This document shows positions 22,782-61,133 of a stretch of DNA of 64,000 nucleotides, piece by piece. The notes beneath the pieces were generated by a model. It had not been told where the DNA came from. It saw only the letters and a list, made by a program, of their open reading frames with translations, and did no database searches. The stretch lies in assembly GCA_900551855.1 (NCBI GenBank), contig URXM01000002.1:102290-166289 (forward strand), written 5' to 3'. A program made the position numbers and the translations under genes. Position 1 is the first letter of the stretch. Each line of letters opens with the position of its first letter. Source of the DNA: an uncultured Eubacteriales bacterium (lineage in GTDB: Bacteria > Bacillota > Clostridia > Christensenellales > UBA1242).

Positions 22782-22892
22782 TATTTTGTCGAAAAAGGCA
22801 AACAATATTTTAGAGATAATGTTCTTAATTGTTAAATTTGTGTTTGGACTGTTTGCCTAGACTTTATGTCAATTTTAGAAAATGGAGTTTGT

Positions 22893-31800: not shown

Positions 31801-34800
31801 CAATGAGCAATACTTCGTTGAATGAGGGGTCAAGCATTGGAGTTGGACTTAGATTCCAGACGGTAACCCCATCTACAAGCAATGAAGGATATGTAATGTT
31901 TGAGTCTTTCAACTATTCTAAAGATACAACAGAAAATGCAAACTTCATCAATGATATAAACATTCATTTAACCAACTATGCTGGAAATTATAGAATAAGC
32001 ACTGCAAAACTTGAAGTGACTATAAAACACAACAATGGTGGAGAACAATTACCAGCAGGAACAATCATAACAAAGACATGGACACCTACTGTTGATGATT
32101 ATGGAAACATTAAATTGTCTATCATTGAAGATGGCAATAAATGGTATAAAGAAGGAACCGAAGTTGTTGGCATTGAGGTTAATTCAACAATCATTGAAGA
32201 CGCTTCATGTATTTTGTCACTTAACATTTTAAGAGAAGAAATAGAAGAAGGCGAAGAAGAAAAACCAATAGGTTATTATGATGTGAAATATGGAAACAAC
32301 GTATTGAAACAATCTCACACTATTTCAAGTGGTTTTGCTTCACCAGATTTCTCTGAAGCAAATGTTGACACTCAAGTTAGTTTGTCTGGAATAAGTGCTT
32401 ACGGATATTCAAATTCTTTAAGTGCTGTCAATGTTGATAGCGTTTCTACAACAACACAGAGTACAGTTTCTAAGACAGATGCTATTCAAGTTAAGAAAAT
32501 AGAATTCTATCTTGGAGATACATGGCTTGGTGGAACTTACAGAACGGAAAGCGGAATTGTTTCAAAATCAAATATTTCAGGATATAATGATTCTAATGCC
32601 AAATCAGTTAAGTTGGTCACAAACGCAAATTATTCGTTTGTCACAGAAGTCACAGGAACAACAGGCACCGCAAATGGAACAGCAACAATCAGCAAGGGAG
32701 AAGTCTTTGATGAAGGCAAAGAGTTTACTGTGCCTATCATCAATGGTTTCTATTATGGAACAGGAACTACATTGTCAAATGTAAAGATGAATATCACTCT
32801 TGTTGACACGGCAAGTTCAAGTGGAGAAGAATGCGTAATAAGTTCTTATGTGACATTAAATCGTGCAGCTTCAACAAATGGATTGTTTGATTCAACTATT
32901 TATGACACAAAATCTCCAACGATCTACAAAATAAAATCAACTTACAATGATACTTTGGAAGTTGTATTGGATGCTGGTGAAAGTATAACTTTTGTTGTAA
33001 ACGACAAAGATATTGACAGCGTTGACACTCAAAACAAAGTTATAACAGTTGGAGGAGAGACAAAGAATATAAACTTTGTCACATTGACAAACTCTAAAGA
33101 ATACACTGTTACCGAATATATTGGCATCTCTGCAAGCATAAGTGGACTTACAGAAAATCTTAAACAGGATTCTGCATTCTACATTTATGCTACAGAAATG
33201 GAAGGAACACCTGTTATAAACTACAATGCAACAACATTGGCATTTACAGAAGATAAAGATGAAGAAGACAACACTGTTGGTTATAAAACTAATGGCACAA
33301 TCGGGGTGTACGAGAATGGTTCTGGTGCTTTGGTTATGAACATTGAAAACGAAAATGAACTTAGTTTTTCAAATGTAAAAACTGAAACATTGTACTTCAT
33401 TTATAGAGAAAACGAACAAAATTATCAATATTCATGTACTTTCACAGTAAAACCTTATTATGAAAGTGCAGAAGCAACTCAAGGAAATTATTTCCAAGTA
33501 GATGATTATTACAAAGTTTCTAATGCTACAACAGGCAACACATATTACATTATTCCTCGTGCAACATGGGGAGTTAACATCAAATTGAAAGGTTTTGACG
33601 ACAACAATTTGGCAAACACTGCTTCTTATAGAATTTACTTTGATATAAATTCTACAGGCGGAACAGGATCTGCATTTATTGATGAAAATGGTATGATAAC
33701 CACAACAGAACAATTTGATATTGCTGCTCATTACTTGGTAGTAAATATCTATGCAAAATTCTCTGGCACAAATGGTGCGTTTGACGAAGATAGCACAAGA
33801 ATTATGTTGGGATCATACAGAATTTATCTTAAAACAAATGCAAATACAAGCACCGACAGCAAAGCTGAAGGTATTTATAAAGATGATAAAGGTAATATCA
33901 TAATAATTCCTGAAGGCTATAAATTGGTGGAAGTTTATGAAGGCAGCAGTGCTTTAGGTACAGGACTGACATCAATAACAGAAGGTGAAGGCAGTGCAGT
34001 TTCATTTACTTATGCTATAGAAGCTGGACAAACAATTGACTTCGCACAAGTTTATAGCGAAAGTTCTGACCAAAATTATGGATATAAATATAATACAACA
34101 TATCACCTTGCTAAATATGATGACACTTATGTTTATTTCGACAATTTGGACAAATGGACATTTAGAAATGCAGGTAATTACACTATTACAATGGTTGTGA
34201 CAGGAAGAAATGAAATTTCAAAAGCAATAGATGCTAAGCTTTTAACAGCAAACATTATTGTTTATGAAACATCTACAAAAGAAGAACAACAATATTACGG
34301 AAGTTTGGGAACAAATTTCTTTAATGAAGATATGTTTGATCAAGATTATGATTATTACGAAATCAATGAAAATGGCAGTGTAAGTAAAGTAGAAAGTTCT
34401 ATTACATTTGAAAAAATTGGAATTTATACAAAAACTTATATTGCACAGTCAAAGACTGGCGGAGAAACAAAGATAGTCACAAAAACATTCTATGTTTACC
34501 AAAATTCTGGTTATATTCAAAAATATGTTGCTCTTCAACCTTTCACAACATTCCAACTTTCAAATTTGGTTGAAGGTTTAGCAGAGGGGCAGAGCGTAGA
34601 ATTCTACAAAGAAGAAATGAACAGCATTTCAAGAATTGTTGCTGAAACATTCTCAAAAGCAATCAACTCTGAGTCAAATTCTACTTATATAGTTGTTGTT
34701 AAAAATTCTGAAGGAACAATAGTTTCAGTTGATTTATACAAAGTAAATTATAAATTTATTTCTGCAGATGTATCAGATGAAAGTTTGCTTGTCACAAGCA

Positions 34801-46434: not shown

Positions 46435-47523
46435 TCAGATTTTCAAGACTTTGGTGCGTTCCCAAGGATAGTTTGGGTGTCCGAAGTGGCCATAACAAGC
46501 CGTTTGTTTGTAGATTGGATTTAGAAGATTGAGTTCTTCAATTATGTTGTCAAGGCTGAAGTCAAAATTGTTTTCAACAACTTTATATATTTTTTGCAAA
46601 GGCATTTTTTCAGTGCCAAAAGTATCAATGTTTATTGAAATAGGTTTTTCAAGTCCTATGCCAAAAGAGAGTTCTACTTCACATTTGTCGCAGAGGTTGT
46701 TTGACACAAGATTTTTTGCAACATATCTTGCATAGTATGCTCCAGAACGATCAACTTTTGTGGCGTTTTTGCTGGAAAAACACCCACCACCAACTTTTGC
46801 AATTCCGCCATAGGTGTCAACAACAATTTTTCTGCCGACACAGCCACTATCTCCAAAACTTCCCCAAATTGTAAATTTTCCACTTGGATTGATGATGTAT
46901 GTTGTGTCTTTATTGATATATTTAGAATAGTCTTTCAAAACTGGTTCTATAACATTTTTCATAATCTTGTCTTTTATGTTTTTGCAATCATGACTGTGAC
47001 TGACACTTATTAAAATGTTTGAAATGTAGGCAGGTCTGTCATCTTCATAGCAAACGGAAACTTGAGATTTTGCATCTGCAAAAAATTCATTTGTTGTTCT
47101 TCTGTATTCATCATATTTTTTCATGAGTTTATGTGCGAGCAAAATTGTCAAAGGCATAAATTCTGGAGTTTCGTTTGTGGCATATCCAAAAACAATCCCT
47201 TGATCATTGGCACAAAGGTGTTTTTTGACAACGGCATTGTTTATGTCTGGACTTTGAGCAGAAACTTCTACAACAAATTCAAAAGGTTGGGTGTAGCCCA
47301 CATCTTTCAAGACCTGTTTTGCAATTTCTACATAGTCGATTTTTGCTGTGGTTGTTGCTTCTCCATAAATGAAAAGTTTGTTGTTTTTGATTGCACATTC
47401 AACTGCCATTTGTGCGTTTTTGTCTTGCCTTAATGCTTCATCAAGAAAAGAATCAGCAATTACATCACAGGTTTTGTCTGGATGCCCAATGTTTACGCTT
47501 TCACTGGTTAATATTTTTTTCAT
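46435..47523 (-). CDS. metK: S-adenosylmethionine synthetase
   Basis: ATG at 47523 lies behind AAAGGAG. GHPDK motif (SESVNIGHPDKTCD) and GGCFSSKNATKVDRSGAY. The track start at 47610 lies inside the riboswitch. Confidence 0.95.
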   Translation of the reverse strand: MKKILTSESVNIGHPDKTCDVIADSFLDEALRQDKNAQMAVECAIKNNKLFIYGEATTTAKIDYVEIAKQVLKDVGYTQPFEFVVEVSAQSPDINNAVVKKHLCANDQGIVFGYATNETPEFMPLTILLAHKLMKKYDEYRRTTNEFFADAKSQVSVCYEDDRPAYISNILISVSHSHDCKNIKDKIMKNVIEPVLKDYSKYINKDTTYIINPSGKFTIWGSFGDSGCVGRKIVVDTYGGIAKVGGGCFSSKNATKVDRSGAYYARYVAKNLVSNNLCDKCEVELSFGIGLEKPISINIDTFGTEKMPLQKIYKVVENNFDFSLDNIIEELNLLNPIYKQTACYGHFGHPNYPWERTKVLKI

Positions 47524-47547
47524 ATTTTCTCCTTTAACCATATAAAT

Positions 47548-47672
47548 TAAAAAAGCCCATCGTACGATGGGCATAATTTCTTTTTCTCCCATCGATTCAA
47601 GCTTTAGCACCTTGTTTTTACAGGTTGCTGTGTGGTCATAGGGCTTGTCCCTCGCACACTCTTTATGGTTGA
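47548..47672 (-). promoter_or_regulatory. SAM-I (S-box) riboswitch with an intrinsic terminator
   Basis: The minus strand reads ...AAGAGTGTGCGAGGGACAAGCCCTATGACCACACAGCAACCTGTAAAAACAAGGTGCTAAAGC..., matching the S-box core (GAGGGA, GCCC-ATGA, AGCAACC, AAGGTGCTAAA). The terminator GCCCATCG-TA-CGATGGGC plus a T-run follows (47576-47548). Confidence 0.85.
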
Positions 47673-48488: not shown

Positions 48489-48641
48489 ATGAGAAGAGTA
48501 AATAGTTTGGTTGCCACAATAATGGGGACAGTTGTCCATTCAGTTCAGGTACTTATAAATTTGTATTCATTGATACTTGTTTTCTCTTTAATTCCAAGTG
48601 CTGGGGATAGCAGTGCGGGGTGGTTGCCTATGTTGTTTTGA
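48489..48641 (+). CDS. 50-aa hydrophobic ORF with a strong RBS; possibly the 5' part of a frameshifted membrane-protein gene
   Basis: AAAGGAGG, 4 nt, then ATG. Hand translation gives MRRVNSLVATIMGTVVHSVQVLINLYSLILVFSLIPSAGDSSAGWLPMLF followed by a stop. It overlaps the next ORF, which lies in the -1 frame. Confidence 0.4.
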   Translation: MRRVNSLVATIMGTVVHSVQVLINLYSLILVFSLIPSAGDSSAGWLPMLF

Positions 48642-49003
48642 CAACGCTTTTGTTGATGGCTATTTTTATTGTGGCTCTAGCTTTAACATTGGCTACATTC
48701 AAATATGTAAATGGATCGCCAGAATTGTATGCAAAGAAGCGTGCCACAACTATTGCAACAATTGTGTTTGACCTTTTGGTTGTGATTTTGTTGCTTGCTT
48801 TTGGAATTAGTTCAAGCATCCCTTCAACTGTCATAAATGTTCTTTCTGCATTGATTATACTTGCATCAGCAGTATTGTACATTGTTGACTTGTGTTTAGA
48901 GAAAAAGCGTGTTGAAAAAGTAAACAAAGACGCTGTTGCAGAACCTACAGAAGTTAAAGAAGAAAAACCTGTAGTTGAAGAAAAAACAGAAGAAAAGAAA
49001 TAA
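48620..49003 (+). CDS. Membrane protein (three TMs plus a K/E-rich tail); GTG start without an RBS, possibly the 3' part of a frameshifted gene
   Basis: 127-aa ORF with hydrophobic helices. There is no Shine-Dalgarno sequence before the GTG at 48620. The frame-2 stop lies just upstream at 48608-48610. Confidence 0.5.
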   Translation: MVAYVVLTTLLLMAIFIVALALTLATFKYVNGSPELYAKKRATTIATIVFDLLVVILLLAFGISSSIPSTVINVLSALIILASAVLYIVDLCLEKKRVEKVNKDAVAEPTEVKEEKPVVEEKTEEKK

Positions 49004-49013
49004 ATATTGTTTA

Positions 49014-49051
49014 AACAAAAAAGATAGTGCAAATAAGCATTATCTTTTTTT
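49014..49051. terminator. Hairpin terminator (AAAGATAGYG...CRCTATCTTT family)
   Basis: AAAGATAGTGC (49019-49030) pairs with GCATTATCTTT (49037-49047), then a T-run. Confidence 0.6.
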
Positions 49052-49109
49052 CTTTTGTTATACTTTATATAAAACAAAAAAGCATACAAAACTGTATGCT
49101 TTTTCTTTT

Positions 49110-49186
49110 TGGTGGAGATAGACGGACTCGAACCGTCGACCCCCTGCTTGCAAGGCAGGTGCTCTAGCCAACTGAGCCATACCCCC
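49110..49186 (-). tRNA. tRNA-Ala (anticodon UGC), CCA encoded
   Basis: The reverse strand reads GGGGGTATGGCTCAGTTGGCTAGAGCACCTGCCTTGCAAGCAGGGGGTCGACGGTTCGAGTCCGTCTATCTCCACCA. The cloverleaf folds, with the G3:U70 Ala identity pair and anticodon loop CTTGCAA. Confidence 0.95.
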
Positions 49187-49273
49187 ATATGCCCTAAAAT
49201 ATTAGCACATTTTAGAGCTATTGTCAACAAATTTTAAAAAATATTTCCAAGACAAACAAAATTATATTGAAAA

Positions 49274-49797: not shown

Positions 49798-50010
49798 CTA
49801 TTTGCAGTTGCAACCACCACAGTTTGAAAGCAAAATTAAGAACAAGAGAGTTCCGCAGTCAATGCAGATTTCTCCGCCTTTCATTCCGCCAAAACCACAT
49901 CCGCAGTTTTGTAAAAGCAAAAGTAAGAAGATAAGTGAGCAGGTGTCCATTCCGCATCCGCCACATTCTCTACCTACATCGCCACAATTAGAGCCTCCAA
50001 AAAAGTTCAT
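49798..50010 (-). CDS. Small Cys/Gly-rich protein with two hydrophobic helices (internal duplication)
   Basis: RBS: reverse strand AATAGGAGGCACAAATG. The 70-aa product contains two units of [CGxC...C-(S/G)-L-(I/L)-F-L-(L/I)-L-L-x-N-C-G-(C/G)]. Confidence 0.55.
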   Translation of the reverse strand: MNFFGGSNCGDVGRECGGCGMDTCSLIFLLLLLQNCGCGFGGMKGGEICIDCGTLLFLILLSNCGGCNCK

Positions 50011-53195: not shown

Positions 53196-53225
53196 TTGAC
53201 TTTTGAAAAATATTCTTGATATAAT
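53196..53225 (+). promoter_or_regulatory. Extended -10 promoter of the ESCRT-like operon
   Basis: TTGACT (53196-53201), 18-nt spacer ending in TGA, TATAAT (53220-53225), about 40 nt upstream of the first ATG. Confidence 0.6.
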
Positions 53226-53266: not shown

Positions 53267-54109
53267 ATGGAGCAAAACATTATCACTTTTACAGGAAACA
53301 ATCAAAAATTGTTGTCAAGATATATAATTGAAAAACTTGATCCAAAATTGACACTTATTGTGCCTGAAACTCACAATGCAATTTTGATTAAAGATGGTCA
53401 AATGCTTCAAACCTTATCTTCTGGAAAATATTTAATCAGCAAATTTGTTGATTTGAAAACAGAAGCAGATTCTGCACTTGAAATTTTGTTTATGTCAAAA
53501 ACAGCAAAACTTAAACTGCTTTGGGGAACTCCACAAAAACTTATTATGTATGACAACTTGTTGCAAGAAAATTATCGAGTTGGCATGAGCGGAGATTTTG
53601 AAGTCCAGGTAGGCGATCCAAGAAAATGCTTCTTATACCTTGTAGGAGCTTCCGAAGATTTGACTTCTGATGCTCTTCAAGACAGATTGATGTCAAATGT
53701 TGTTTCGGTGCTCGAAACAGTTGTTGTAGATTATGTAGAAACAAACAAAGTGTTGTTTAATCAAATTTCTCTTTGCAAAAAAGAGATTGCTTCAAAAGTT
53801 TTGAGCAAGTTGAGCCAAAAACTGATGAACGAATATGGTATTGCGGTTTTTTCTTTCAATATTGCAAACATTATTATTGATGATGAAGACAGAGAAAAGT
53901 TGGAGAAAGAATACAAACAATTAAAGAAGACAGAAGACTTTATCTGCAGAAATTGTGGAGCGGTGCTAAAAGAAAACGACAAGTTCTGTTCTGTTTGTGG
54001 GAAGAAAGTTGAGATATCCAAAAAATGTCCAAAGTGCTTTGCAGAGAATGCCGATGATGCAAAGTTCTGCTCAAGTTGTGGAGCAAAACTGTCAAATGAG
54101 GAGGAGTAA
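53267..54109 (+). CDS. SPFH/Band-7 (YdjI-like) protein with a C-terminal double zinc ribbon
   Basis: RBS AGAAGGGG. The body follows the YdjI-type SPFH pattern (...LIVPETHNAILIKDGQ..., LLWGTPQKL, YRVGMSGDFEVQVGDP, EYGIAVFSFNIANI). The tail has CRNC..CSVC and CPKC..CSSC. Confidence 0.75.
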   Translation: MEQNIITFTGNNQKLLSRYIIEKLDPKLTLIVPETHNAILIKDGQMLQTLSSGKYLISKFVDLKTEADSALEILFMSKTAKLKLLWGTPQKLIMYDNLLQENYRVGMSGDFEVQVGDPRKCFLYLVGASEDLTSDALQDRLMSNVVSVLETVVVDYVETNKVLFNQISLCKKEIASKVLSKLSQKLMNEYGIAVFSFNIANIIIDDEDREKLEKEYKQLKKTEDFICRNCGAVLKENDKFCSVCGKKVEISKKCPKCFAENADDAKFCSSCGAKLSNEEE

Positions 54110-54511
54110 ATGATAGCAGTTTATATTATAATTTTGTTGGCTGTTGTTGGACTTGCAGTGTTTTACATTTGCAGAGAATACATCAAAAAACCAGAAAATG
54201 AAGAAGGAAGTCGTGGAGTTGTAAAAAACAAAAAAAATATTGAAAAAATGGTGGCAAATGTTGAAAGCATACTTGTTTATGCAAACGGCAATGACGAGTT
54301 GTGCAATCGTTTAGTTGAAGTAAAAGACAACATCAGATTTTTCAATCCTACAACAAATCCAAAAGTTTTGTTGACAGATACAAAAATTGCAAACAAACTT
54401 GATGACTTGAAAATTATGGTTGCAAAAGACAACACACAAGAAACTTGCTTTAGAGTTTTGGAAGAGATTGAAGCATACATTGTTCAAAGAAAAAAGGATG
54501 AAATTGACTAA
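54110..54511 (+). CDS. Small N-terminally membrane-anchored helical protein
   Basis: The ATG abuts the upstream stop (TAAATG). One TM (IAVYIIILLAVVGLAVFYI) is followed by about 105 aa of charged, helical sequence. Confidence 0.6.
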   Translation: MIAVYIIILLAVVGLAVFYICREYIKKPENEEGSRGVVKNKKNIEKMVANVESILVYANGNDELCNRLVEVKDNIRFFNPTTNPKVLLTDTKIANKLDDLKIMVAKDNTQETCFRVLEEIEAYIVQRKKDEID

Positions 54512-54870
54512 TGAAAAGAACTTATCAAACTTCTGCTGATTTGCCAGAAAGCGAACAGGTGAAAACTTTGAACGAACTTAAACTTGGCTATTTGAATTTG
54601 AGCGACGGAATGTTTGAACAAGCAAAAGTCAACTTTCTTCTTGCTCTTCAATATGACAGCAAATGTGCAGATGCTTATTGGGGATTGATGCTTGTCAAGT
54701 TTCAAATAAAAAATGAAGACGAGTTATATTCCAATCCAAATACATATAAAAGTGCGGTTTATCTTCCAGAATATGAAAAAGCAATTGAATATGCTGAAGA
54801 AAATCAAAGAAAAAAATATGAAGATTTGTTGGACAGAATCTATAAGATCAACGAAGGAGACAATTATTGA
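54511..54870 (+). CDS. Small TPR-like helical protein
   Basis: The start overlaps the upstream stop (TAATG). The segment FEQAKVNFLLALQYDSKCADAYWGLMLVKFQIKNEDEL resembles a TPR unit and recurs in the 1273-aa protein of the same operon. Confidence 0.55.
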   Translation: MKRTYQTSADLPESEQVKTLNELKLGYLNLSDGMFEQAKVNFLLALQYDSKCADAYWGLMLVKFQIKNEDELYSNPNTYKSAVYLPEYEKAIEYAEENQRKKYEDLLDRIYKINEGDNY

Positions 54871-54902
54871 TTTTTTGAAATCAATATGCAAAAGGAGCAA
54901 AT

Positions 54903-55517
54903 ATGTGGTGGCCATTTAGAAGAAACAAATTTAAAAATTTGAATAGAGAGGATCTTGTCAATTCTATTTGCGAACTTGAAAGACAAGAACGCACTGCCGA
55001 AGCAGAAGTTTATCAAAAGATAAAAGAGATTGATGCTTTGGTTGATAAAGGCAAGAAAGAGAAAAACAGAGAGTTGCAACTTTTCTATGCAAAGAAAATC
55101 AGTCATCTCAATGAAGAAAAGCAAACTTGTATGGAAAGAGGAATGTATTTGTTGTATAACATCAGGCTTATGAACAAACTTAAAGATGCATACGACAGCA
55201 ACACATTTTTCAAGACTCAAACAAAAGTGCCTTTAAGTGAATTGTTGCAAGACCAAAAGAGATTGGCAAAGTTTTTGAATAAAGCACTTGAAACAAGAAT
55301 TTCTTCCGAAGACGTTTTGACAAGTGCGGACGAACTTTTCAACGAAGTTCAATCTGCTTATGATGTAAGTCAACCAATTTATGGAGTTGGAAAAAACGAA
55401 GAAGAAATTTTGAGTATGTTTGAAAAAGAAAATCAGTTAAACGATGAGCAAGAACTCATGGAAGACAAAGAAAAGTCAGAACCAATAAAAAAGAAAAAGA
55501 TGAAGATGGAGGAATAA
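54903..55517 (+). CDS. ESCRT-III superfamily protein, Snf7/CHMP4-like (tentative)
   Basis: RBS AAAAGGAG. A 204-aa all-helical protein whose core IKEIDALVDKGKKEKNRELQLFYAKKISHLNEEKQTCMERGMYLLYNIRLMNKLKD parallels the CHMP4 alpha1-alpha2 hairpin. The C-terminus is acidic. Confidence 0.6.
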   Translation: MWWPFRRNKFKNLNREDLVNSICELERQERTAEAEVYQKIKEIDALVDKGKKEKNRELQLFYAKKISHLNEEKQTCMERGMYLLYNIRLMNKLKDAYDSNTFFKTQTKVPLSELLQDQKRLAKFLNKALETRISSEDVLTSADELFNEVQSAYDVSQPIYGVGKNEEEILSMFEKENQLNDEQELMEDKEKSEPIKKKKMKMEE

Positions 55518-55520
55518 AAA

Positions 55521-56126
55521 ATGGCTTGGTTTAAATCTAAACAACAAAAAGAAATCGAAAAGAAGATGTTGATTAAAAGAACAATCAACTCAATGAACAA
55601 ACAGATCAATCGTTTGGAAGATCAAAAACAAGTGTTTATTGATGCTGCAAAGAGAGCAAAACTTAAAGGGCTTGATGCACAATTCAATTTGGCTTTGAGC
55701 GGTTATAAAATGACTGTTCAACAACAAAAGAGAGCACAAGAGATGCTTTTAAACTTTGAAATCACTGCACAAATGAAAGATGTCACAATGATGACTTCAG
55801 AGTTTTTGCGTGGAATGAGTGACATAAGCAAGGAAATGACAAAACTTGCAGATGCAAAAGAATTTGCCAAGATTCAAGCTCAATTTGAAGAAGCTATGGC
55901 TGCCGTTGAAACTCAAACAGATCAAATGGACAACTTTATGGAAATGAGTCAAGAAACTTTCTACAATCAAGGTGTTGACAAGAGTGGAAAGCAAATGTCT
56001 GATGAAGAACTTGAAAAGTTTATTATGGAACAAGCTTCTCAAGACGAATTGTCAAGCGAAAACATTGACAAAGAGATGGAAGAAGTTAGAAAGAAAATCG
56101 AATCTGAAACATCAAGCAAAGAATAA
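55521..56126 (+). CDS. ESCRT-III superfamily protein, CHMP2/Vps24-like (tentative)
   Basis: RBS GGAGG. N-terminal MAWFKSK... (compare MxLFGK in CHMPs). INRLEDQKQVFIDAAKRAKLKGLDAQ parallels LDRERQKLExQEKKIIADIKKMAKQGQMDA. MKDVTMMTSEFLRGMSDISKEM parallels MKGVTKAMGTMNRQM. The N-terminal half is basic and the C-terminal half acidic. Confidence 0.7.
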   Translation: MAWFKSKQQKEIEKKMLIKRTINSMNKQINRLEDQKQVFIDAAKRAKLKGLDAQFNLALSGYKMTVQQQKRAQEMLLNFEITAQMKDVTMMTSEFLRGMSDISKEMTKLADAKEFAKIQAQFEEAMAAVETQTDQMDNFMEMSQETFYNQGVDKSGKQMSDEELEKFIMEQASQDELSSENIDKEMEEVRKKIESETSSKE

Positions 56127-56158
56127 TTTTCAATTAGTTTTATATAGGGGTTTTATCC

Positions 56159-57301
56159 ATGGAAGAGACAAACATAAATGTGCTTTCTGACACTTTTAAT
56201 CTTTATATGAAAAAAGGCAAAGAAGCAAAAGAAAAAGGGAATATTACACTTGCAAAGCGAAATTTTTTGCTTGCTAGCGAAACAATGATGCAAATGGCAA
56301 AACAAAGCACTGGCAAACTCAAAGAAGTTCGTATGGATAGAGCACGCCGTCTTGTTGAGATTTCTGACAATTTAAACAAAAAACCTGCAAAGATAAACAA
56401 GAAAGATGAAAAAACAGAAGATGAAGAAGACGAAGATGTAAAAAAATGGCAAGCCGCAGAGATCCCTAAGATAAAATTTAGTGATGTTGCTGGGCTGGAA
56501 GATGTCAAAAAAGCAATCACTATAAGAATGATAAATCCTATCAAATATCCAGACAAATACAAAATGTATGGCAAAAAGACAGGCGGAGGAGTCTTGTTGT
56601 ATGGACCTCCAGGAACTGGTAAAACAATGATTGCCAAAGCGATTGCAAATGAAGTTGGGGCAAAATTTTATGCTGTTAAGGGCTCTGATATTGTCAGTAA
56701 ATGGGTTGGTGACAGTGAGAAAAACATAAATTCACTTTTCCAAGAAGCCAACAAACAAGACAGAGCAATCATCTTTATTGATGAAATGGACAGCCTTATT
56801 GGCAGGCGTGGACTTGACACTCACAATGACAAGAGAGTAAATGAATTTTTGCAACAAATTGATGGTTTTGCAGGAAGAAATCCAAACTTACTTTTGCTTG
56901 GTGCAACAAACAGACCTTGGGATATTGACAGTGCCGCAATGCGTTCGGGCAGATTTTCACAGAAGATTTATTTGCCTTTGCCAGATGCACCAGCAAGAAA
57001 ATTTATGATTGAAAAAAATATGAAAGGTGTTCCTGTTGCAAAAGATTTTGATGTGGACAAAATAGTCGCACAAACCGAGATGTATAGTGGGGCAGACATT
57101 GAAGAACTTTGTGACAGAGCAAAAGATGAGCCTCTTTTGAAAGCTATTGCAACAGATAGCATTATATTGGTAACCAACAAAGATTTTGATGATGTGCTTG
57201 AAAAAATGCCACCTAGTGTGACACCAAAAGAGTTGAAACAATTTGAAGAATACAACAACGAAATCAATGGTTACATAAAAAACAAAAAAGCAAAAAAATA
57301 A
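56159..57301 (+). CDS. Vps4/CdvC-like AAA+ ATPase (MIT-like N-domain plus a single AAA cassette)
   Basis: The N-terminal ~70 aa match the three-helix MIT pattern (KKGKEAKEKGNITLAKRNFLLASETMMQMAK...RMDRARRLVEISDNL), followed by an acidic linker. Motifs: FSDVAGLEDVKKAI, Walker A GPPGTGKT, SKWVGDSEK, Walker B IIFIDEMD, SRH ATNRPWDIDSAAMRSGRF. The C-terminal helix is PSVTPKELKQFEEY. Confidence 0.85.
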   Translation: MEETNINVLSDTFNLYMKKGKEAKEKGNITLAKRNFLLASETMMQMAKQSTGKLKEVRMDRARRLVEISDNLNKKPAKINKKDEKTEDEEDEDVKKWQAAEIPKIKFSDVAGLEDVKKAITIRMINPIKYPDKYKMYGKKTGGGVLLYGPPGTGKTMIAKAIANEVGAKFYAVKGSDIVSKWVGDSEKNINSLFQEANKQDRAIIFIDEMDSLIGRRGLDTHNDKRVNEFLQQIDGFAGRNPNLLLLGATNRPWDIDSAAMRSGRFSQKIYLPLPDAPARKFMIEKNMKGVPVAKDFDVDKIVAQTEMYSGADIEELCDRAKDEPLLKAIATDSIILVTNKDFDDVLEKMPPSVTPKELKQFEEYNNEINGYIKNKKAKK

Positions 57302-57311
57302 GGGTTTTTAA

Positions 57312-60300
57312 GTGAGAGAGCGTGTTTGTAAAAATTGTGGAGGGAGAAAATATAAAGTTGTTGGGCAGAACATGGTTAAATGTATGTTCTGTGGAACTCT
57401 CTATGTAGACGAACAGGCTTCCAAGGAAGAAGAAGTCCTTACAGTCAGAGCTTATGACAAACTTAGAGAATGCAAGTTTGACGAAGCTGTTGATGAATTT
57501 GACAAGATCTTGTCTTTATATCCAATGTCTTTTGAAGGAAGATATGGAAAAGTTTTAGCAAAAAATAAAATCATTCTTTACACAAACAAAAGAGGAGTTT
57601 CAAAAAGACCTCGTTTTTTTGGCGAAGAAATACCTTCAATTTTGGAAGAGGAAGACTTTAAAGAAGCAGTAAAAAATGCACCTCCAGAAATGGCAAAAAC
57701 ATATACGGACCAAGCCAAGAGAATTGAAAAAATAAGAAAAAATTATTTGGAAGAGACAAGCAAAGACAAATATGATGTTTTTGCTTGTGCCTTAGATTTT
57801 GATAAAGAAGACGAAAATAGTGTCGTAGCAAAAGCATTGGAAGAATTGAAAAACGAAGGTCTTGCTGTTTATTTTGTTCAAGGACTTGATCATAGAGAAA
57901 GAGAGGAAGATTCTTTCCAAGCATTGAAAACAGCAAAAGTGTTTTTACTTTTTGCAAACGATGAAAAAAATTTCAACAATGGGGAAATAAAGAATTTTTA
58001 CGACAGATACTTATATTTTATCTCTCAAAGAAAAAAGACAAAAAGCAGTTTTATCATTGCGCTAGACAGCGAGAAAATTTCTGCTTCAGAATTGCCAAAA
58101 GAATTGACCACATTTAAAAATGTTGTGGATATAAACCAAATTTCTTTTTTACAAGATTTGAAAGTAATCGTAAAAAAAGAAATGGAAAATTCTATTGATG
58201 AAGTTGCGAAAATAGACACAGTTAAAATTGAAAAAGTCGAGCCAGAGAAAAAAGCATATGTTGACATTGAAAGCATAAATCCAAGTGAGCTTGGACATTA
58301 TCATGTTGAAAATGTTGAACTTAGTGATGCAAACAAAATCAAATGGATTTTCTTGACGCTGAAGAATGGTGATTTTGCTTCGGCGACAGACTTGATTGAA
58401 AAGGGTTTGGAAAAAGATCCATACAATTCGGAACTTATGTTTGCACAGCTTATGGCCGAAAACAACATCAAAACTCAAGAAGAGTTTTTCTTGAATATTG
58501 CAAACTTTAGGGACAAAGAAAAAATTGACAAACTGCTCACTTATGCTTCAAAAGATTTTGCAGAATATTTTGTTGACAGTTGGGAAAAACTTGTTGAGAG
58601 ACTTGATAGTGAGGAATATTACAACGCATTTTTACTTTATTTGGCAAAGTATACATCACCAAACAGAAATAACTTTATTGAAAAAGCAGAAAACAAGGCT
58701 GTTGAAACATTAAATGAAGAACTGATTGACAAAGTTTTGAAGTGTTTTAAAAGTGATGAAGTTGATAGATTTGTTCAATTTTACTTTATGCTTGCACAAA
58801 AAAGTGATGATCAAAAATATTATCAAAAAATTTTGGACATTGATGCTGGACACGAACAAAGCAATATTGCTGTTTTGTTGCAACATTTCAAGACTGAAGA
58901 AGATTTGCTAAACTATCGAAACAAAGAAGAAATAGAAAATTCATTTAAATATTTAAGTGAAAATTCAAGGACAAGATTTGTTTCTTCTTTGATAAATATG
59001 ATTTTGCCAATTGCGTTTTATGATTTATCAAAGGCAGAAGAACAGTTGGATTTCTATTTGTCATATGTTGCCGATGATCAAGAGCTTGCAAAGATACTTC
59101 AACAAATTGCGAGCGTTTTTCAAGAGCAAGGATTTTTTAAACAAGCAGAAAAATATATTTCTATTGCTATTTCAAAGGATAATTCAAACAGCGAATTATA
59201 TTGGCAACTTATAGAAATCAAAGCTCATTGCAAAACCGACAATGAGATCATTATGTCAAATGTAAAGGTTTCTCAAATGCCAGAATGGGAAACATTGCTT
59301 AGTCTGTCAGATGAAAAACAAACAGAAAAGTATGCTGAAATCACAAGCAAAGCAAATTTATATTCTGGAGAAAAAATCCCATTTAAAATGGATTTGCCTG
59401 ACAAGGTTAATTTGATACAAGAGATACAAGATTTTGTTAATAGAAACGAAAAGATTTTGTTGGAGATAGAAAACCAAGAAGGGGACAAAGTCTTAAAAGG
59501 AATAAAATATTATAGCCTTCAACTTCAGCCTTTTGAAAAATATATTGAAGATATAAAAGGTATAAAAGACTTTAAAGATTATCAAGATATTTATTCAAAA
59601 ATCAATTCAAGACTAGAAGCCTTAAATTTGACATTGTTGACATCTGTAAATGTTATTGATTTGTTGAATAAGAGCGAAGGTCTTGTTGCAGTTTTTCAAG
59701 ATTCAAAACCAAAAATCACTAAAAAATCAAAACAAAAAGACATAAGAGACATAAAGAAAGATAAGTTTATTAAAAAGTTTTTATACATATTTTTGGAGCT
59801 ATTCCCAATCTTGTTTACAACTTTGCTTTTGGTGGTTTTGCTTGTCAATCCAAAAGAAGTTTACTTGTATTTCAGTCAAGAATTTTTGATAGTTTCTATG
59901 ATTTTTTCAACTTTGATAGGAATGATAAATCTTGTTGTTTTTATCAATATTAGGCACAAAGTTTCAAAGAAATGGAATATCGCAAACAGTATTCTGTTTT
60001 GTGTTGCCGGAATAAACATCATATTGATGTTGGCAGGACTTTATCTTTTCCCAGTGACAATGCAAATCAACAATGCAAAAGAAATGAGAGTGTTGCTCAA
60101 GAATGCCTCTTATTCAAATTTTGAATTGACAACGGACATTGATATGAGTGATAAGTCTTGGCAATCATTCAATTTTAGTGGATCATTAAATGGAAATGGA
60201 CACTCACTTACAAATTTAAAATTTGACAACAAAGATGGCAAGATTGGTTTGTTTAAAAGAAACAGTGGAGATATTAAAAATTTACAAATCTATTTGGCAG

Positions 60301-61133
60301 ATGAACAATATTCAAATATAAACAGATTTGGACCTATTGCAAGGTCAAATTATGGAGCAATTGAAAACTGTGTTGTTTATGGGACAATTGAATTAAACAT
60401 AAATGAAAATGCTGTTGTTGGAGGAGTAAGTGCCTCTATGGAAGGCGGAACAATTTTAAATTGTGAAACTTATTTGACAATAACAATAAATGTTGAAGAT
60501 GCAAATCTTACTTATGGTGGAATTGTTGGAGAAGTGAGAACAAGCCAAGGTGAGACAATTATATCTAAATCAACGAACAACAGCAATGTGATGATAAATG
60601 CTAACAATGCTCAGACAATCAGCGCTGGTGGATTTGTGGGGATTTTAAGACATTTGGACAAAGATGACTTTGATTTCTCTATAAATGCAAGCAATTCAAA
60701 TTTGCAAGTTTCTGGAAATGGGCAAGAAGTGATTGCTGGTGGTCTTGTAGGTCAAGGATACAGCAGCAGTGAAAACAATTATTCGACAGGGCTTATTGAT
60801 TTGTCTGAATTTGTTGGAAGTGGCTATGTTGGTGGACTTTATGGTGAGTATGAAAACACATCACTTCTTGATAGTATAAAAACAAGTTATTCTCTTGTTT
60901 CACTTGATGTAAACGATCAAGTTAAGGTCGGCGGACTTGTTGGAAGCCTTGGGGGAAAAATTGTTTATTGTTTCTCAAATGTCGTAGACAAAGATTTGGT
61001 TGGAGATACAAGATTTTCTTCTGCAGGAGCAGATAATTGCAAGCAATTATCAAACAAATTTTATGATGAGAGTTTGAATTTTGACGAAAATGTATGGGTG
61101 ATAACTGATACGGCTTATCCAATTTTCAAATAA
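57312..61133 (+). CDS. 1273-aa modular membrane protein: Zn ribbon, TPR-like repeats, TIR-like module, more helical repeats, three TMs and an extracellular GLUG-repeat domain
   Basis: GTG start 7 nt after AAGGG. Zn ribbon CKNCGG...CMFCG. YDVFACA...AVYFV...VFLLFAN...SFIIAL (nt ~57771-58120) has a TIR/flavodoxin-like beta-alpha pattern. Three hydrophobic helices lie at nt ~59763-60060. About eight (V/A/Y)GG(L/I/F/V)VG-type GLUG repeats follow, ending in VWVITDTAYPIFK. Confidence 0.75.
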   Translation: MRERVCKNCGGRKYKVVGQNMVKCMFCGTLYVDEQASKEEEVLTVRAYDKLRECKFDEAVDEFDKILSLYPMSFEGRYGKVLAKNKIILYTNKRGVSKRPRFFGEEIPSILEEEDFKEAVKNAPPEMAKTYTDQAKRIEKIRKNYLEETSKDKYDVFACALDFDKEDENSVVAKALEELKNEGLAVYFVQGLDHREREEDSFQALKTAKVFLLFANDEKNFNNGEIKNFYDRYLYFISQRKKTKSSFIIALDSEKISASELPKELTTFKNVVDINQISFLQDLKVIVKKEMENSIDEVAKIDTVKIEKVEPEKKAYVDIESINPSELGHYHVENVELSDANKIKWIFLTLKNGDFASATDLIEKGLEKDPYNSELMFAQLMAENNIKTQEEFFLNIANFRDKEKIDKLLTYASKDFAEYFVDSWEKLVERLDSEEYYNAFLLYLAKYTSPNRNNFIEKAENKAVETLNEELIDKVLKCFKSDEVDRFVQFYFMLAQKSDDQKYYQKILDIDAGHEQSNIAVLLQHFKTEEDLLNYRNKEEIENSFKYLSENSRTRFVSSLINMILPIAFYDLSKAEEQLDFYLSYVADDQELAKILQQIASVFQEQGFFKQAEKYISIAISKDNSNSELYWQLIEIKAHCKTDNEIIMSNVKVSQMPEWETLLSLSDEKQTEKYAEITSKANLYSGEKIPFKMDLPDKVNLIQEIQDFVNRNEKILLEIENQEGDKVLKGIKYYSLQLQPFEKYIEDIKGIKDFKDYQDIYSKINSRLEALNLTLLTSVNVIDLLNKSEGLVAVFQDSKPKITKKSKQKDIRDIKKDKFIKKFLYIFLELFPILFTTLLLVVLLVNPKEVYLYFSQEFLIVSMIFSTLIGMINLVVFINIRHKVSKKWNIANSILFCVAGINIILMLAGLYLFPVTMQINNAKEMRVLLKNASYSNFELTTDIDMSDKSWQSFNFSGSLNGNGHSLTNLKFDNKDGKIGLFKRNSGDIKNLQIYLADEQYSNINRFGPIARSNYGAIENCVVYGTIELNINENAVVGGVSASMEGGTILNCETYLTITINVEDANLTYGGIVGEVRTSQGETIISKSTNNSNVMINANNAQTISAGGFVGILRHLDKDDFDFSINASNSNLQVSGNGQEVIAGGLVGQGYSSSENNYSTGLIDLSEFVGSGYVGGLYGEYENTSLLDSIKTSYSLVSLDVNDQVKVGGLVGSLGGKIVYCFSNVVDKDLVGDTRFSSAGADNCKQLSNKFYDESLNFDENVWVITDTAYPIFK

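Follow-up and report, generated by a model that had tools for sequence, protein, structure and literature searches.

A clostridial operon that places a predicted Snf7-type ESCRT-III protein next to a Vps4-like ATPase

Recent reviews confine the pairing of a Snf7-type ESCRT-III protein with a Vps4-like ATPase to archaea and eukaryotes, and a review of 2025 states that a Vps4-like ATPase 'appears absent in bacteria'. One paper on bacterial Vps4-like ATPases describes a dyad 'MIT+Vps4-AAA -> TPR+TM', for example Opitutus ACB74714.1, in which snf7 is said to be displaced (Ravi et al. 2024, PMC11237479). A SPFH protein with a zinc ribbon was reported in the locus of the euryarchaeal Meth_adaptin ESCRT-III systems (Makarova et al. 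2024, PMC10936438). In PspA systems, near which SPFH/Band-7 partners have also been reported, a MIT-AAA partner is absent and either PspF or none is used.

We analysed an operon of seven genes, separated by gaps of 0-32 nt, at positions 53267-61133 of the window, by which we mean the whole stretch of 64,000 nucleotides of DNA that was analysed (Table 1). Its host is a bacterium, as the SAM-I riboswitch and the relatives, which are MAGs of Clostridia, indicate, and the seven-gene operon is conserved among Christensenellales-like Clostridia, in at least 80 species genomes. A promoter-like site, found by consensus match only, lies about 40 nt 5' of the first gene, and no terminator-like site was found on the + strand between the two ends of the operon. 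In this bacterium, a Snf7-type protein with a predicted MIM1-like tail (protein B) adjoins a MIT-AAA ATPase, and the pairing spans loci of widely differing GC content. We regard the locus as a new form of the ESCRT-III/Vps4 design in bacteria, and we give a probability of roughly 0.6 to the reading that the operon encodes an ESCRT-III/Vps4-like membrane-remodelling module.

Table 1. Positions of the operon genes and of associated features in the window.
Feature	Position	Strand	Description or basis
Promoter-like site (TTGACT-18-TATAAT, upstream TG)	53196..53225	+	11/12 consensus matches, best of the region
SPFH/Band-7 protein, C-terminal double zinc ribbon, 280 aa	53267..54109	+	first gene of the operon
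Small protein, 133 aa	54110..54511	+	one N-terminal membrane anchor, helical cytoplasmic part; syntenic
Small TPR-like protein, 119 aa	54511..54870	+	TPR matches sub-threshold only
Protein A, 204 aa	54903-55517	+	helical-hairpin protein
Conserved C-terminal motif of A, IYGV...DDELLAMFE, residues 159-174	55377-55424		
Protein B, 201 aa	55521-56126	+	predicted Snf7/CHMP/CdvB-type ESCRT-III
Predicted MIM1-like C-terminal amphipathic helix of B, residues 179-193	56055..56099	+	SENIDKEMEEVRKKI; family alignment
Vps4-like ATPase, 380 aa	56159..57301	+	MIT-like domain, acidic linker, one AAA cassette, Vps4_C helix
MIT-like three-helix N-terminal domain of the ATPase, ~residues 8-75	56180-56383		
Large membrane protein, 1273 aa	57312..61133	+	zinc ribbon, TPR, TM helices, extracytoplasmic domain

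Comparison of the operon with the archaeal CdvB/CdvC systems showed that in both a Snf7-type ESCRT-III gene lies immediately 5' of the gene of a MIT-AAA-Vps4_C ATPase; CdvB is moreover the best fold match of B, and the CdvC model aligns with the ATPase end to end. The zinc-ribbon SPFH protein is shared with the Meth_adaptin systems. The operon differs from the archaeal systems by its bacterial host, by a B protein without a winged-helix domain, by the absence of CdvA and ESCRT-I/II-like genes from the locus and by its partners, which are here a ZnR-TPR-3TM protein and protein A, while the ATPase differs from CdvC in failing the equivalog cut-off and in being without the beta domain. The MIM of crenarchaeal CdvB is of the proline-rich type 2, whereas the tail of B resembles type 1 (helical). 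With eukaryotic CHMP2A/Vps2, B shares the profile alignment described below, a MGLFGK-like N-terminus, a basic N-half followed by an acidic C-half and the MIM1 spacing in the C-terminal helix, and the pore loop of VPS4, SKW[LM]GESEK, resembles that of the ATPase. However, the identity is low, the ESCRT-0/I/II, Vta1/LIP5 and Bro1 partners are absent here and the core of the ATPase is nearer to D2 of Cdc48.

Among bacterial systems, PspA, Vipp1 and LiaH share with B the superfamily fold, the bacterial host and a plausible role in membrane maintenance, but they differ from B in the families matched and in its pairing with a MIT-AAA protein. The operon resembles the dyad of Ravi et al. in gene order and domain content, since in both a large TPR protein with TM helices comes after a Vps4-like ATPase that bears a MIT domain. 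In contrast to that dyad, the Snf7-type gene and A are kept directly 5' in Clostridia, and the TPR protein has three predicted TM helices instead of six and also carries a zinc ribbon and an extracytoplasmic domain. Since a Snf7-type gene lies directly upstream of the ATPase gene, the description of snf7 as displaced does not apply to this operon.

The family of B comprises at least 327 clusters at 50% identity. A profile made from 93 diverse relatives had CHMP2A (7zcg_B) as its top natural match in the PDB (E 9.5e-6), in a collinear alignment of 138 residues covering residues 9-142 of CHMP2A at an identity of about 15%, while CHMP3 and CHMP1B were matched more weakly and no PspA or Vipp1 chain was found at E<=1. 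Designed helical-repeat proteins scored near CHMP2A (5.9e-5), so that helical composition inflates the scores of the B profile; their matches were sums of short repeats, whereas the CHMP2A match was one continuous domain. Comparison of the individual relatives with Pfam showed that 14 of the 93 stand-alone proteins matched Snf7 (PF03357), around the 27.3-bit cut-off and at best at 9.6e-7, as did two fused relatives (3.3e-6 and 1.3e-3). Snf7 was the sole Pfam family matched recurrently, always collinearly. Neither PspA_IM30 (PF04012; 0 of 93 at E<=0.01) nor the phage-shock PspA of NCBIfam was matched by B relatives, and a PspA/LiaH-type assignment of B was rejected because these models and the PspA/Vipp1 chains of the PDB were not matched. 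The B sequence of the window had no relevant match of its own in Pfam, NCBIfam or the PDB; the profiles at the level of the family were the informative ones. An earlier note on this DNA had aligned B by eye with CHMP2A in four blocks, three of which (the N-terminus, INRLEDQK.../LDRERQK... and FEEAM.../FERQAE...) agree with the profile alignment, while the fourth (MKDVT/MKGVT) is shifted by about 10 residues: in the profile alignment, GMSDISKEM is paired with AMKGVTKAM.

The AlphaFold2 model of B (pLDDT 87.1) has four long helices, at residues 7-48, 52-107, 112-149 and 161-199. The first three Foldseek ranks of this model were CdvB of S. islandicus, with probabilities of 0.96-0.99, followed by CHMP1B, CdvB2, CHMP2A and Loki CHMP4-7, and Vipp1 ranked only 32nd. 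For the models of A and B alike, no Foldseek match reached E 1e-3 and all E-values were above 0.05, so that the ranking for B supports an ESCRT-III fold while the statistics fall short of proof. The N-terminal half of B, which begins with the motif MAWFKSK, has a pI of 10.05 (net +9) and the C-terminal half a pI of 4.28 (net -15). Judged by its family profile and its predicted fold, B is a Snf7/CHMP/CdvB-type ESCRT-III protein.

The B family also retains a predicted MIM1-like C-terminal helix. The consensus of the family tails is D-x-x-[IL]-x-x-[KR]-[LI]-x-x-[LIV]-x-K-K-[IL], with isoleucine or leucine in 79 of 91 tails at the first hydrophobic column, leucine or isoleucine in 81 of 93 at the second and leucine, isoleucine or valine in 88 of 93 at the third. 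The MIM1 consensus reportedly reads (D/E)xxLxxRLxxL(K/R), and the family tail fits it as a predicted motif. A MIM1-like regular expression matched 45 of the 93 B tails, versus 9.3 expected from shuffled tails; elsewhere in these proteins, stretches scanned for comparison gave 3-9 matches. In the tail of the window's B protein, a glutamate occupies the Arg/Lys position of MIM1.

The AAA cassette of the ATPase matched PF00004 at 3.3e-42 (residues 145-274), with conserved Walker A (GPPGTGKT, 149-156), pore loop (SKWVGDSEK, 180-188) and Walker B (IIFIDEMD) motifs, and its C-terminal helix matched Vps4_C (PF09336) with 24.2 bits against a cut-off of 21.3 bits (residues 338-368). The CdvC model NF041006 matched residues 10-368 at 9.3e-62, over model positions 8-367 of 370. 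The 209 bits of this match failed the equivalog cut-off of 650, and the CDC48 model scored 222 bits. Whether the full length or the lid plus C-terminus was the query, the top 60 PDB matches were p97/Cdc48/AFG2 domains, and the closest solved AAA modules were those of p97 D2. The lid aligns with p97 D2 uninterrupted, the beta-domain insertion for Vta1 binding being absent from the small AAA subdomain, and Pfam found no Vta1-like gene in the operon. Because of the 209 bits against a cut-off of 650 and the best solved relatives in p97 D2, the ATPase is, on its domain matches, Vps4-like in architecture yet no CdvC/Vps4 orthologue. Plain Cdc48 or FtsH was likewise rejected as a full description, since the protein has one cassette, a MIT-like N-domain and a Vps4_C helix and is without a protease or double-psi barrel domain.

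A profile of the ATPase N-terminus (n=20) matched the MIT domain of chitin synthase (2mpk) in the PDB at 6.5e-6, those of VPS4A/B at 0.07-0.9 and that of CdvC (2w2u) at 0.27, with designed helical repeats scoring near these MIT domains. Pfam MIT (PF04212) was matched by three of the 20 relatives, the best at 1.4e-4, and by the ATPase sequence of the window alone not at all. The same profile recognised the B-adjacent ATPases of loci L088-L091, which are outside its build set, at E 1e-15 to 1e-16. We assign the N-terminus to a predicted MIT domain with moderate confidence. The conserved MIM1-spaced tail, the MIT-like domain, the Vps4_C helix and the strict adjacency of the genes make chance an unlikely explanation.

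In the mechanism that we propose for a membrane-remodelling module, B would bind the cytoplasmic face of the membrane through its basic helical hairpin and MAWFKSK N-terminus and polymerise there, and its acidic C-terminal part would autoinhibit or regulate assembly. The MIT domain of the ATPase hexamer would capture the MIM1-like C-terminal helix of B, and the hexamer would thread and extract B subunits through its KWVGDSE pore loop, which would lead to turnover of the polymer. Protein A, encoded immediately upstream, may be a co-polymer subunit, a nucleator or an adaptor for B, and the SPFH-zinc-ribbon, small anchored and ZnR-TPR-3TM proteins may localise or trigger assembly at the membrane. 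The role of the module is likely membrane repair or maintenance, or the scission of vesicles or of a septum, which the data do not separate.

The SPFH protein matched Band_7_1 (7.5e-14), Zn_Ribbon_1 (1.3e-14) and DZR (5.4e-13). The 133-aa protein has a single hydrophobic segment at residues 2-20 and matched no family of Pfam or NCBIfam. The 1273-aa protein has an N-terminal zinc ribbon (CxxC at residues 6 and 24), a TPR-rich cytoplasmic region (TPR_14 at 6.6e-6, TPR_2), three predicted TM helices at 826-912 and an extracytoplasmic repeat domain of about 360 aa, which is beta-helix-like with a weak match to Pectate_lyase_5. Further loci were sought in a genome scan with an alignment of six sequences as the query, which biased it towards the Christensenellales-like clade. 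A and B were found with the same neighbours in 76 of the 80 species loci fetched, at identities of 44-97% for A and 56-96% for B. The four loci without an A homologue are L055, L056 and L074 (B 1.5-2.2 kb from the locus end) and L080, which retains a truncated A at the locus edge. Throughout L001-L054, the SPFH gene is kept 5' of A-B, the gene of the 1273-aa protein lies directly 3' of the ATPase gene and the 119-aa TPR-like gene is kept; this last gene is lost in more distant loci. The flanks of the locus are syntenic across about 50 species.

The earlier note had described A and B as two adjacent proteins of the Snf7 type, not the PspA type. Its two reading frames, 3 nt apart on the + strand, were exact, the AlphaFold2 models agree that both proteins are all-helical, and the basic N-half and acidic C-half that it saw are found in A (pI 9.08 and 4.77) as in B. 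It had also suggested that the C-terminal tails could carry a MIM-like helix, which the conserved consensus predicts for B, and had placed an ATPase and a MIT domain next to the pair, which is consistent with the MIT-like domain, single AAA cassette and Vps4_C helix that were found. The comparison with PF03357 and PF04012 that it proposed favoured Snf7 among the relatives of B, with no match for A or for the B sequence of the window, and the hairpin that it looked for in the models is present in B together with further helices, while in A (pLDDT 67.5) the hairpin 15-52/56-99 is confident (85-88) and the remainder is at 50-70. The Snf7-type assignment was sustained for B by the Snf7 and CHMP2A matches and the CdvB fold. 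The resemblance of A to CHMP4/Snf7 was not confirmed: A alone had no relevant match in Pfam, NCBIfam or the PDB, its relatives (n=22) had none in Pfam, and its profiles of 22 and 50 sequences found no ESCRT-III chain in the PDB at E<=10. As A is without a sequence link to Snf7/CHMP4, two Snf7-type proteins was an overstatement; the data support a single protein of the Snf7 type, together with a helical-hairpin partner whose ancestry is uncertain and a Vps4-like ATPase.

Protein A is possibly an ESCRT-III-like partner of B that has diverged very far. The two have their length and charge asymmetry in common, their N-terminal motifs are alike (MWPFKSK in A and MGLFKSK in B; the conserved N-terminus of A is MWPFKSKY) and A has a confident long helical hairpin, as B does. 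Although no Foldseek match of the A model was below E 0.28, nine of its 14 top matches were chains of the ESCRT-III superfamily, namely CdvB2 and Asgard ESCRT-IIIB filaments (probability 0.77-0.87 for these two), CHMP3 (7zcg_A) and Vipp1, intermixed with SNX1 BAR and designed bundles; this modelled fold is only suggestive of ESCRT-III. BLASTP detected no paralogy between A and B, and HMM cross-searches of the two families gave nothing significant. A weak hhalign alignment of A with B, collinear end to end over about 165-190 columns, had a probability of 9-30% by mode and E 1e-4 to 4e-3. Its score of 24.3 was reached by none of 150 column shuffles (13.0 +/- 2.3) and by 11 of 150 shuffles of 7-column blocks (17.8 +/- 3.4); it exceeds the first null and not the second.

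This last result, like the missing sequence link to any ESCRT-III protein in Pfam and in the PDB profile searches, suits a different reading, to which we give a little less than an even chance: A would be no ESCRT-III paralogue, but an adaptor or regulator specific to its lineage and comparable to cofactors such as CdvA, Vta1 or those of the IST1 type. Its task would be either to bring B to the SPFH/TPR membrane complex or to modulate the ATPase, and its motif IYGV...DDELLAMFE would serve as a binding peptide. The A family (661 clusters) is confined to the Christensenellales-like clade, and at its position other lineages have second and third paralogues of B, or helical proteins of about 340 aa that are unrelated. 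Against the adaptor stand the features common to A and B, the collinear alignment and the fold matches to CdvB2 and the Asgard filaments.

The distant B subfamilies were characterised by their GC content and the genes around them. Of the nine distant loci that continue beyond B, six have a MIT-AAA gene immediately 3' of B, at GC contents of 29-66%; L088 and L090 have a second B paralogue ahead of the MIT-AAA gene, and in L084/L085 the ATPases are upstream of B. Several loci carry two or three B paralogues, as expected for heteropolymers. Among the distant loci, a core of Band_7_1, X, B, MIT-AAA and a giant LRR protein recurs, with Band_7_1 beside B in L084, L088, L089 and L090. The proteins upstream of distant B (the ~340-aa proteins, those of 235 aa in L082 and 221 aa in L086 and the paralogues in L084) had no significant similarity to the A or B profiles. 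The pair of B and MIT-AAA is conserved across many bacterial lineages, together with membrane proteins of the SPFH and TPR-TM kinds.

Among the other genes of the same-core loci are those for a TIR_2 protein (L089), for trypsin-like proteases (L084, L089 and L091) and for SNF2 helicases (L088 and L090), and the B domain is also found fused to a RuvB-like ATPase and NERD nuclease or to FtsK-type ATPases. The TIR, NERD, trypsin-like and SNF2 genes point to conflict systems rather than housekeeping. The ESCRT-III-like, SPFH and AAA proteins would then form a membrane-associated sensor or effector of an anti-phage or inter-genomic conflict system, in which the complex would repair or deliberately perturb the membrane on infection, with the large surface protein as the sensor. 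Searches of PADLOC-DB 2.0 matched the ATPase to IetA (2.9e-39) and TRIP13, both of them generic AAA similarities, whereas the other six operon proteins, among them A, B, the SPFH and the large protein, matched no defence model. The operon of the window is moreover without nuclease, TIR or protease genes by Pfam, and its context is the syntenic chromosomal one of about 50 species and not a variable island. No relatives of B were found in IMG/VR, so that a phage origin is unsupported. We judge a conflict system unlikely.

Very unlikely, in our view, is a superficial likeness, in which A and B would belong to the generic coiled-coil or helical-bundle proteins, for instance as stress proteins like PspA/LiaH or as unrelated scaffolds, the ATPase would be an unfoldase of the Cdc48 kind whose helical N-domain is unrelated, and there would be no ESCRT-like cycle of polymer and disassembly: the silence of the window's A and B sequences, the designed repeats near CHMP2A and the MIT domains, the Foldseek E-values and the likeness to p97 D2 agree with it, but many independent B relatives match Snf7 and never PspA, the CHMP2A match is one continuous domain, ESCRT-III structures dominate the top Foldseek ranks of B, and chance would hardly produce the MIM1-spaced tail and the MIT-like domain along with a Vps4_C helix and strictly adjacent genes.

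Should the function of a membrane-remodelling module be confirmed, the operon would provide a bacterial model for ATP-driven ESCRT-III turnover, identify unannotated membrane-remodelling genes in abundant gut Clostridia and inform the question of how the ESCRT-III-Vps4 partnership began: by a single origin in archaea, by an older one or by transfer between domains. In the boldest form of this reading, which we regard as improbable, the operon would belong to a widespread bona fide bacterial ESCRT-III/Vps4 machine, with a Snf7-type polymer and a hexameric disassemblase recruited by MIM1-MIT contact, of an old bacterial lineage and without recent archaeal import. This machine would have diversified into multi-paralogue polymers and fusions (FtsK, RuvB-NERD) that tether DNA motors to the polymer, and the partnership would be older than the archaeal ancestor, or the domains would have exchanged it at a very early stage.

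Both plus-strand ORFs, A and B, that an earlier note had placed at 54903-56126 and read as two adjacent Snf7/CHMP-type ESCRT-III-like proteins beside an MIT-domain ATPase were present there. They are separated by 3 nt and belong to a run of seven plus-strand genes with a spacing of 0 to 32 nt, for which a single strong promoter-like site was found and within which there were no plus-strand terminator-like sites. The window is a bacterial chromosome segment (GC of about 32%), and the relatives of its proteins came from Clostridia MAGs (Candidatus Caccovivens, Candidatus Coproplasma and Christensenellaceae).

Positions of the genes and features discussed in the text (L numbers, loci with relatives of B; P numbers, single proteins among these relatives)
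Feature	Sequence	Positions	Strand
Strong promoter-like site	window	53196-53225	
SPFH/Band_7_1 protein + double zinc ribbon	window	53267-54109	+
Small membrane-anchored protein	window	54110-54511	+
TPR-like protein	window	54511-54870	+
Protein A, 204 aa	window	54903-55517	+
Protein B, 201 aa	window	55521-56126	+
AAA ATPase	window	56159-57301	+
1273-aa protein: Zn-ribbon, TPR region, 3 TM helices, extracytoplasmic domain	window	57312-61133	+
4140-aa ORF	window	22866-35288	+
metK (S-adenosylmethionine synthetase)	window	46435-47610	-
SAM-I riboswitch	window	47586-47671	-
200-aa mechanical ORF	window	48628-49230	-
tRNA-Ala(UGC)	window	49110-49186	-
70-aa Cys/Gly-rich ORF	window	49798-50010	-
ATPase with extra C-terminal domain	L057	8581-10137	
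ATPase with extra C-terminal domain	L058	6775-8271	
Three tandem paralogues	L084	2049-4827	
221-aa protein	L086	7310-7975	
TIR_2 protein	L089	9808-10983	
B-domain fusion	L088	6075-7886	
B-domain fusion	L090	8001-9863	
B-domain fusion	L091	8001-9668	
B-domain fusions	P0288, P0294, P0299, P0310, P0314, P0352		

The B sequence of the window, used alone, gave no match in Pfam, NCBIfam or PDB. When 1.84 billion cluster representatives were searched exhaustively with HMMER, 327 relatives of B came back at E<=1e-3; 93 diverse full-length relatives made up alignment A2 (mean column identity of 25%). The best natural PDB match of the A2 profile was human CHMP2A (7zcg_B, E of 9.5e-6), profile positions 12-149 pairing with CHMP2A residues 9-142 as one collinear domain; CHMP3 and CHMP1B were matched more weakly, and there were no PspA or Vipp1 chains at E<=1. 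Snf7 was the sole recurrent Pfam family among the relatives (14 of 93, best 9.6e-7) and was also matched by two fused relatives (3.3e-6 and 1.3e-3), while PspA_IM30 was matched by none of the 93 and the family did not match the phage-shock PspA of NCBIfam, which upholds the choice of a Snf7/CHMP type over a PspA type. Three of the four blocks aligned by eye between B and CHMP2A fitted the profile alignment, the MKDVT/MKGVT block being about 10 residues out of register, and the charge asymmetry proposed for B was found (pI of 10.05 in the N-terminal half and 4.28 in the C-terminal half).

The AlphaFold2 model of B, built on the alignment of 93 relatives, had a pLDDT of 87.1 and helices at 7-48, 52-107, 112-149 and 161-199. 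Comparison of this model with the PDB by Foldseek placed S. islandicus CdvB at ranks 1 to 3 (probability of 0.96-0.99), followed by CHMP1B, CdvB2, CHMP2A (0.94) and Loki CHMP4-7, with Vipp1 at rank 32. Each line of evidence is modest, since no Foldseek E-value fell below 0.06 and designed helical repeats reached 5.9e-5 against the sequence profile of B, via summed short repeats; the assignment is carried by the agreement of these separate lines on one family. B very probably belongs to the Snf7/CHMP/CdvB-type branch of ESCRT-III.

The type 1 MIT-interacting motif, present in Vps2/CHMP2, Did2/CHMP1 and IST1, has the consensus (D/E)xxLxxRLxxL(K/R). In the 93 relatives of B, the last 20 or so residues formed an amphipathic helix conserved as D-x-x-[IL]-x-x-[KR]-[LI]-x-x-[LIV]-x-K-K-[IL], with hydrophobic columns of I/L (79/91), L/I (81/93) and L/I/V (88/93). 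The core regular expression was found in 45 of the 93 tails, versus 9.3 in shuffled tails and 3 to 9 in other windows of the same proteins. By its spacing, this family-wide tail is a MIM1-like candidate, in keeping with the MIM-like helix that had been suggested for the C-terminal tail of B; the window copy reads SENIDKEMEEVRKKI, with Glu where Arg or Lys is usual. Type 1 motifs are helical elements that bind the MIT helix 2/3 groove (PMC9477494).

The neighbouring ATPase has one AAA cassette (Pfam, 3.3e-42), an AAA lid, and a Vps4_C match of 24.2 bits versus a cut-off of 21.3 bits. The NCBIfam CdvC model spans it end to end (residues 10-368 versus 8-367 of 370), with a score of 209 bits for a cut-off of 650, while the CDC48 model scored 222 bits. 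A profile of 20 ATPase N-termini matched the MIT domains of several proteins: an oomycete chitin synthase (2mpk) at 6.5e-6, VPS4A/B at 0.07-0.9 and Sulfolobus CdvC (2w2u) at 0.27; Pfam MIT was matched by 3 of the 20. The nearest solved structures to the AAA core were p97/Cdc48 D2, the lid has no beta-domain insertion, and the pore loop is SKWVGDSEK, which resembles that of Vps4. These matches and scores give the protein the domain plan of Vps4, yet by curated thresholds it falls short of a CdvC/Vps4 orthologue. The observation of the earlier note is confirmed in part and its interpretation supported in part: its reading of B stands, and the ATPase is Vps4-like but not orthologous.

The ATPases of eight other loci (L057, L058, L060, L061, L064, L065, L067 and L072) continue past a Pro/Glu/Lys-rich linker into an additional conserved domain at the C-terminus (about 110 aa), with the motif Y.C...W.S..L...G.Y.VE. 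This domain is probably beta-rich and is reminiscent of the Ig-like adaptin-appendage domains that have been reported from ESCRT loci of archaea.

Protein A resembles B in length, in its N-terminus (MWPFKSK versus MGLFKSK) and, as had been noted, in charge asymmetry (pI of 9.08 and 4.77). Its family of 661 clusters, all unannotated, appears confined to a Christensenellales-like clade. Profiles of 22 and 50 members matched no ESCRT-III chains in the PDB, no relevant Pfam family was found, and A did not match B by BLASTP, all of which counts against an ESCRT-III identity. Comparison of the A and B families by hhalign gave a collinear end-to-end alignment at a probability of only 9-30%, whose score of 24.3 was reached by 0 of 150 column shuffles (13.0 +/- 2.3) and by 11 of 150 shuffles of 7-column blocks (17.8 +/- 3.4). 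The AlphaFold2 model of A (pLDDT of 67.5) showed a confident hairpin (15-52 and 56-99) and then shorter helices. Foldseek gave it no significant match; ESCRT-III-superfamily chains made up 9 of the top 14, amid a BAR domain and designed bundles, and included CdvB2 filaments and Asgard ESCRT-IIIB (probability of 0.77-0.87, TM of 0.40-0.50), CHMP3 (7zcg_A) and Vipp1. The fold results and the likeness to B speak in favour of an ESCRT-III identity of A, and the hhalign result cuts both ways. Of the two adjacent ESCRT-III proteins claimed, B is supported, and A is not supported by sequence. A is about as likely as not to be an ESCRT-III paralogue that has diverged very far; otherwise, it would be a lineage-specific adaptor.

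With one genome scanned per species, relatives of B were encoded in 108 genomes, and 80 of the loci (L001-L080) were retained for comparison. The complete seven-gene order was kept in L001-L054. In L057-L080, where B identity was 56-66%, the ATPase gene adjoins or lies a few kb downstream, and A and B lie side by side in all but L058 and L074, the latter of which has no A homologue. The flanks (MscL, bPH_2, SDR and an ABC transporter) were syntenic in about 50 species, and no relatives of B were found in IMG/VR. The genes are thus genuine and their operon is conserved, as a chromosomal locus inherited vertically, not an island.

Eleven loci around distant B subfamilies (GC of 29-66%) were also compared; nine of them continue beyond the B gene. 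The B gene looked up was directly followed by a 365-390-aa AAA gene in six of these nine; in L088 and L090 the ATPase gene comes after a second B paralogue, and in L084 and L085 AAA genes lie upstream. The MIT-like N-terminal profile matched the ATPases of L088-L091 (E of 1e-15 to 1e-16), loci outside the set from which it was built. The pairing of B with an MIT-AAA ATPase is general. Several of the loci have two or three paralogues of B, some of them in fusions. Band_7_1 proteins recur. As the N-terminal part of such fusions, the B-type domain is joined to FtsK/SpoIIIE DNA translocases or to RuvB-like AAA+ ATPases, and a NERD nuclease and zinc ribbon may accompany the latter; the fused ESCRT-III module in effect stands in for a membrane anchor.

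In L084, three tandem paralogues (267, 315 and 308 aa) starting MGLFGYNKRDFEKN are followed downstream by a second paralogue of B, two AAA genes and B itself, and in L086 a 221-aa protein starting MAIFEKVSKLFGG is encoded directly upstream of B. These proteins resemble ESCRT-III/PspA at the N-terminus, but hhalign linked them to neither the A nor the B family.

Five distant loci from other bacterial lineages (L084 and L088-L091, GC of 40-58%) are variants of one common core, in which a trypsin-like protease is optional and the further members are Band_7_1, a helical protein (about 340 aa), B, MIT-AAA and a giant protein (1200-1400 aa), which contains LRRs in L088-L090. Additional genes encode a TIR_2 protein (L089) and SNF2 helicases (L088 and L090). 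The set is reminiscent of a conflict system. The rival reading, in which the operon of the window is itself a conflict system, draws on TIR, NERD, trypsin-like and SNF2 genes in related loci of other lineages. Three points weaken it for this operon: there are no effector genes, the chromosomal surroundings are syntenic, and PADLOC gave no matches.

We favour an ESCRT-III/Vps4-like mechanism for the operon, with a probability of about 0.6. B would polymerise on the inner membrane face via its basic hairpin and N-terminal motif, and A would co-assemble with B or nucleate it. The ATPase hexamer would catch the MIM1-like tails of B with its MIT domains and pull subunits through its pore, leading to polymer turnover. 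The site of assembly would be set by the SPFH-zinc-ribbon protein together with the small anchored protein and the zinc-ribbon-TPR-3TM protein. The family assignments, motifs and gene linkage are observed; polymerisation, MIT-MIM binding, disassembly and a physiological role in repair, vesiculation or scission are inferred from established ESCRT-III/Vps4 biology.

In the scheme of Liu et al. 2021, the Snf7 type is archaeal and eukaryotic and the PspA/Vipp1 type bacterial, and a 2025 review states of a Vps4-like ATPase that it 'appears absent in bacteria'. Makarova et al. 2024 (PMC10936438) described archaeal Meth_adaptin loci with an SPFH-coiled-coil-zinc-ribbon protein. Ravi et al. 2024 (PMC11237479) reported the transfer of MIT+Vps4-like ATPases to five bacterial phyla, Firmicutes not among them, with a TPR+6TM partner and snf7 'displaced'. 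Full-text literature searches found no report of a bacterial operon of Snf7-type and MIT-AAA genes. The present operon joins features of three known systems, namely the archaeal ESCRT-III/Vps4 core, the SPFH partner of Meth_adaptin loci and the bacterial Vps4-TPR-TM dyad; by this comparison, it is a so far undescribed bacterial form of a known kind of system.

Elsewhere in the window, the 4140-aa ORF encodes a giant orphan protein with no Pfam match at E<=1e-3. The 70-aa ORF has CGGCG, CGCG and CGGCNC motifs and two hydrophobic stretches; as it has no Pfam match and overlaps a plus-strand ORF, it could be either a spurious ORF or one for a small Cys-rich peptide. The 200-aa ORF is spurious, since it contains the tRNA-Ala(UGC) gene. 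A SAM-I riboswitch lies directly upstream of metK.
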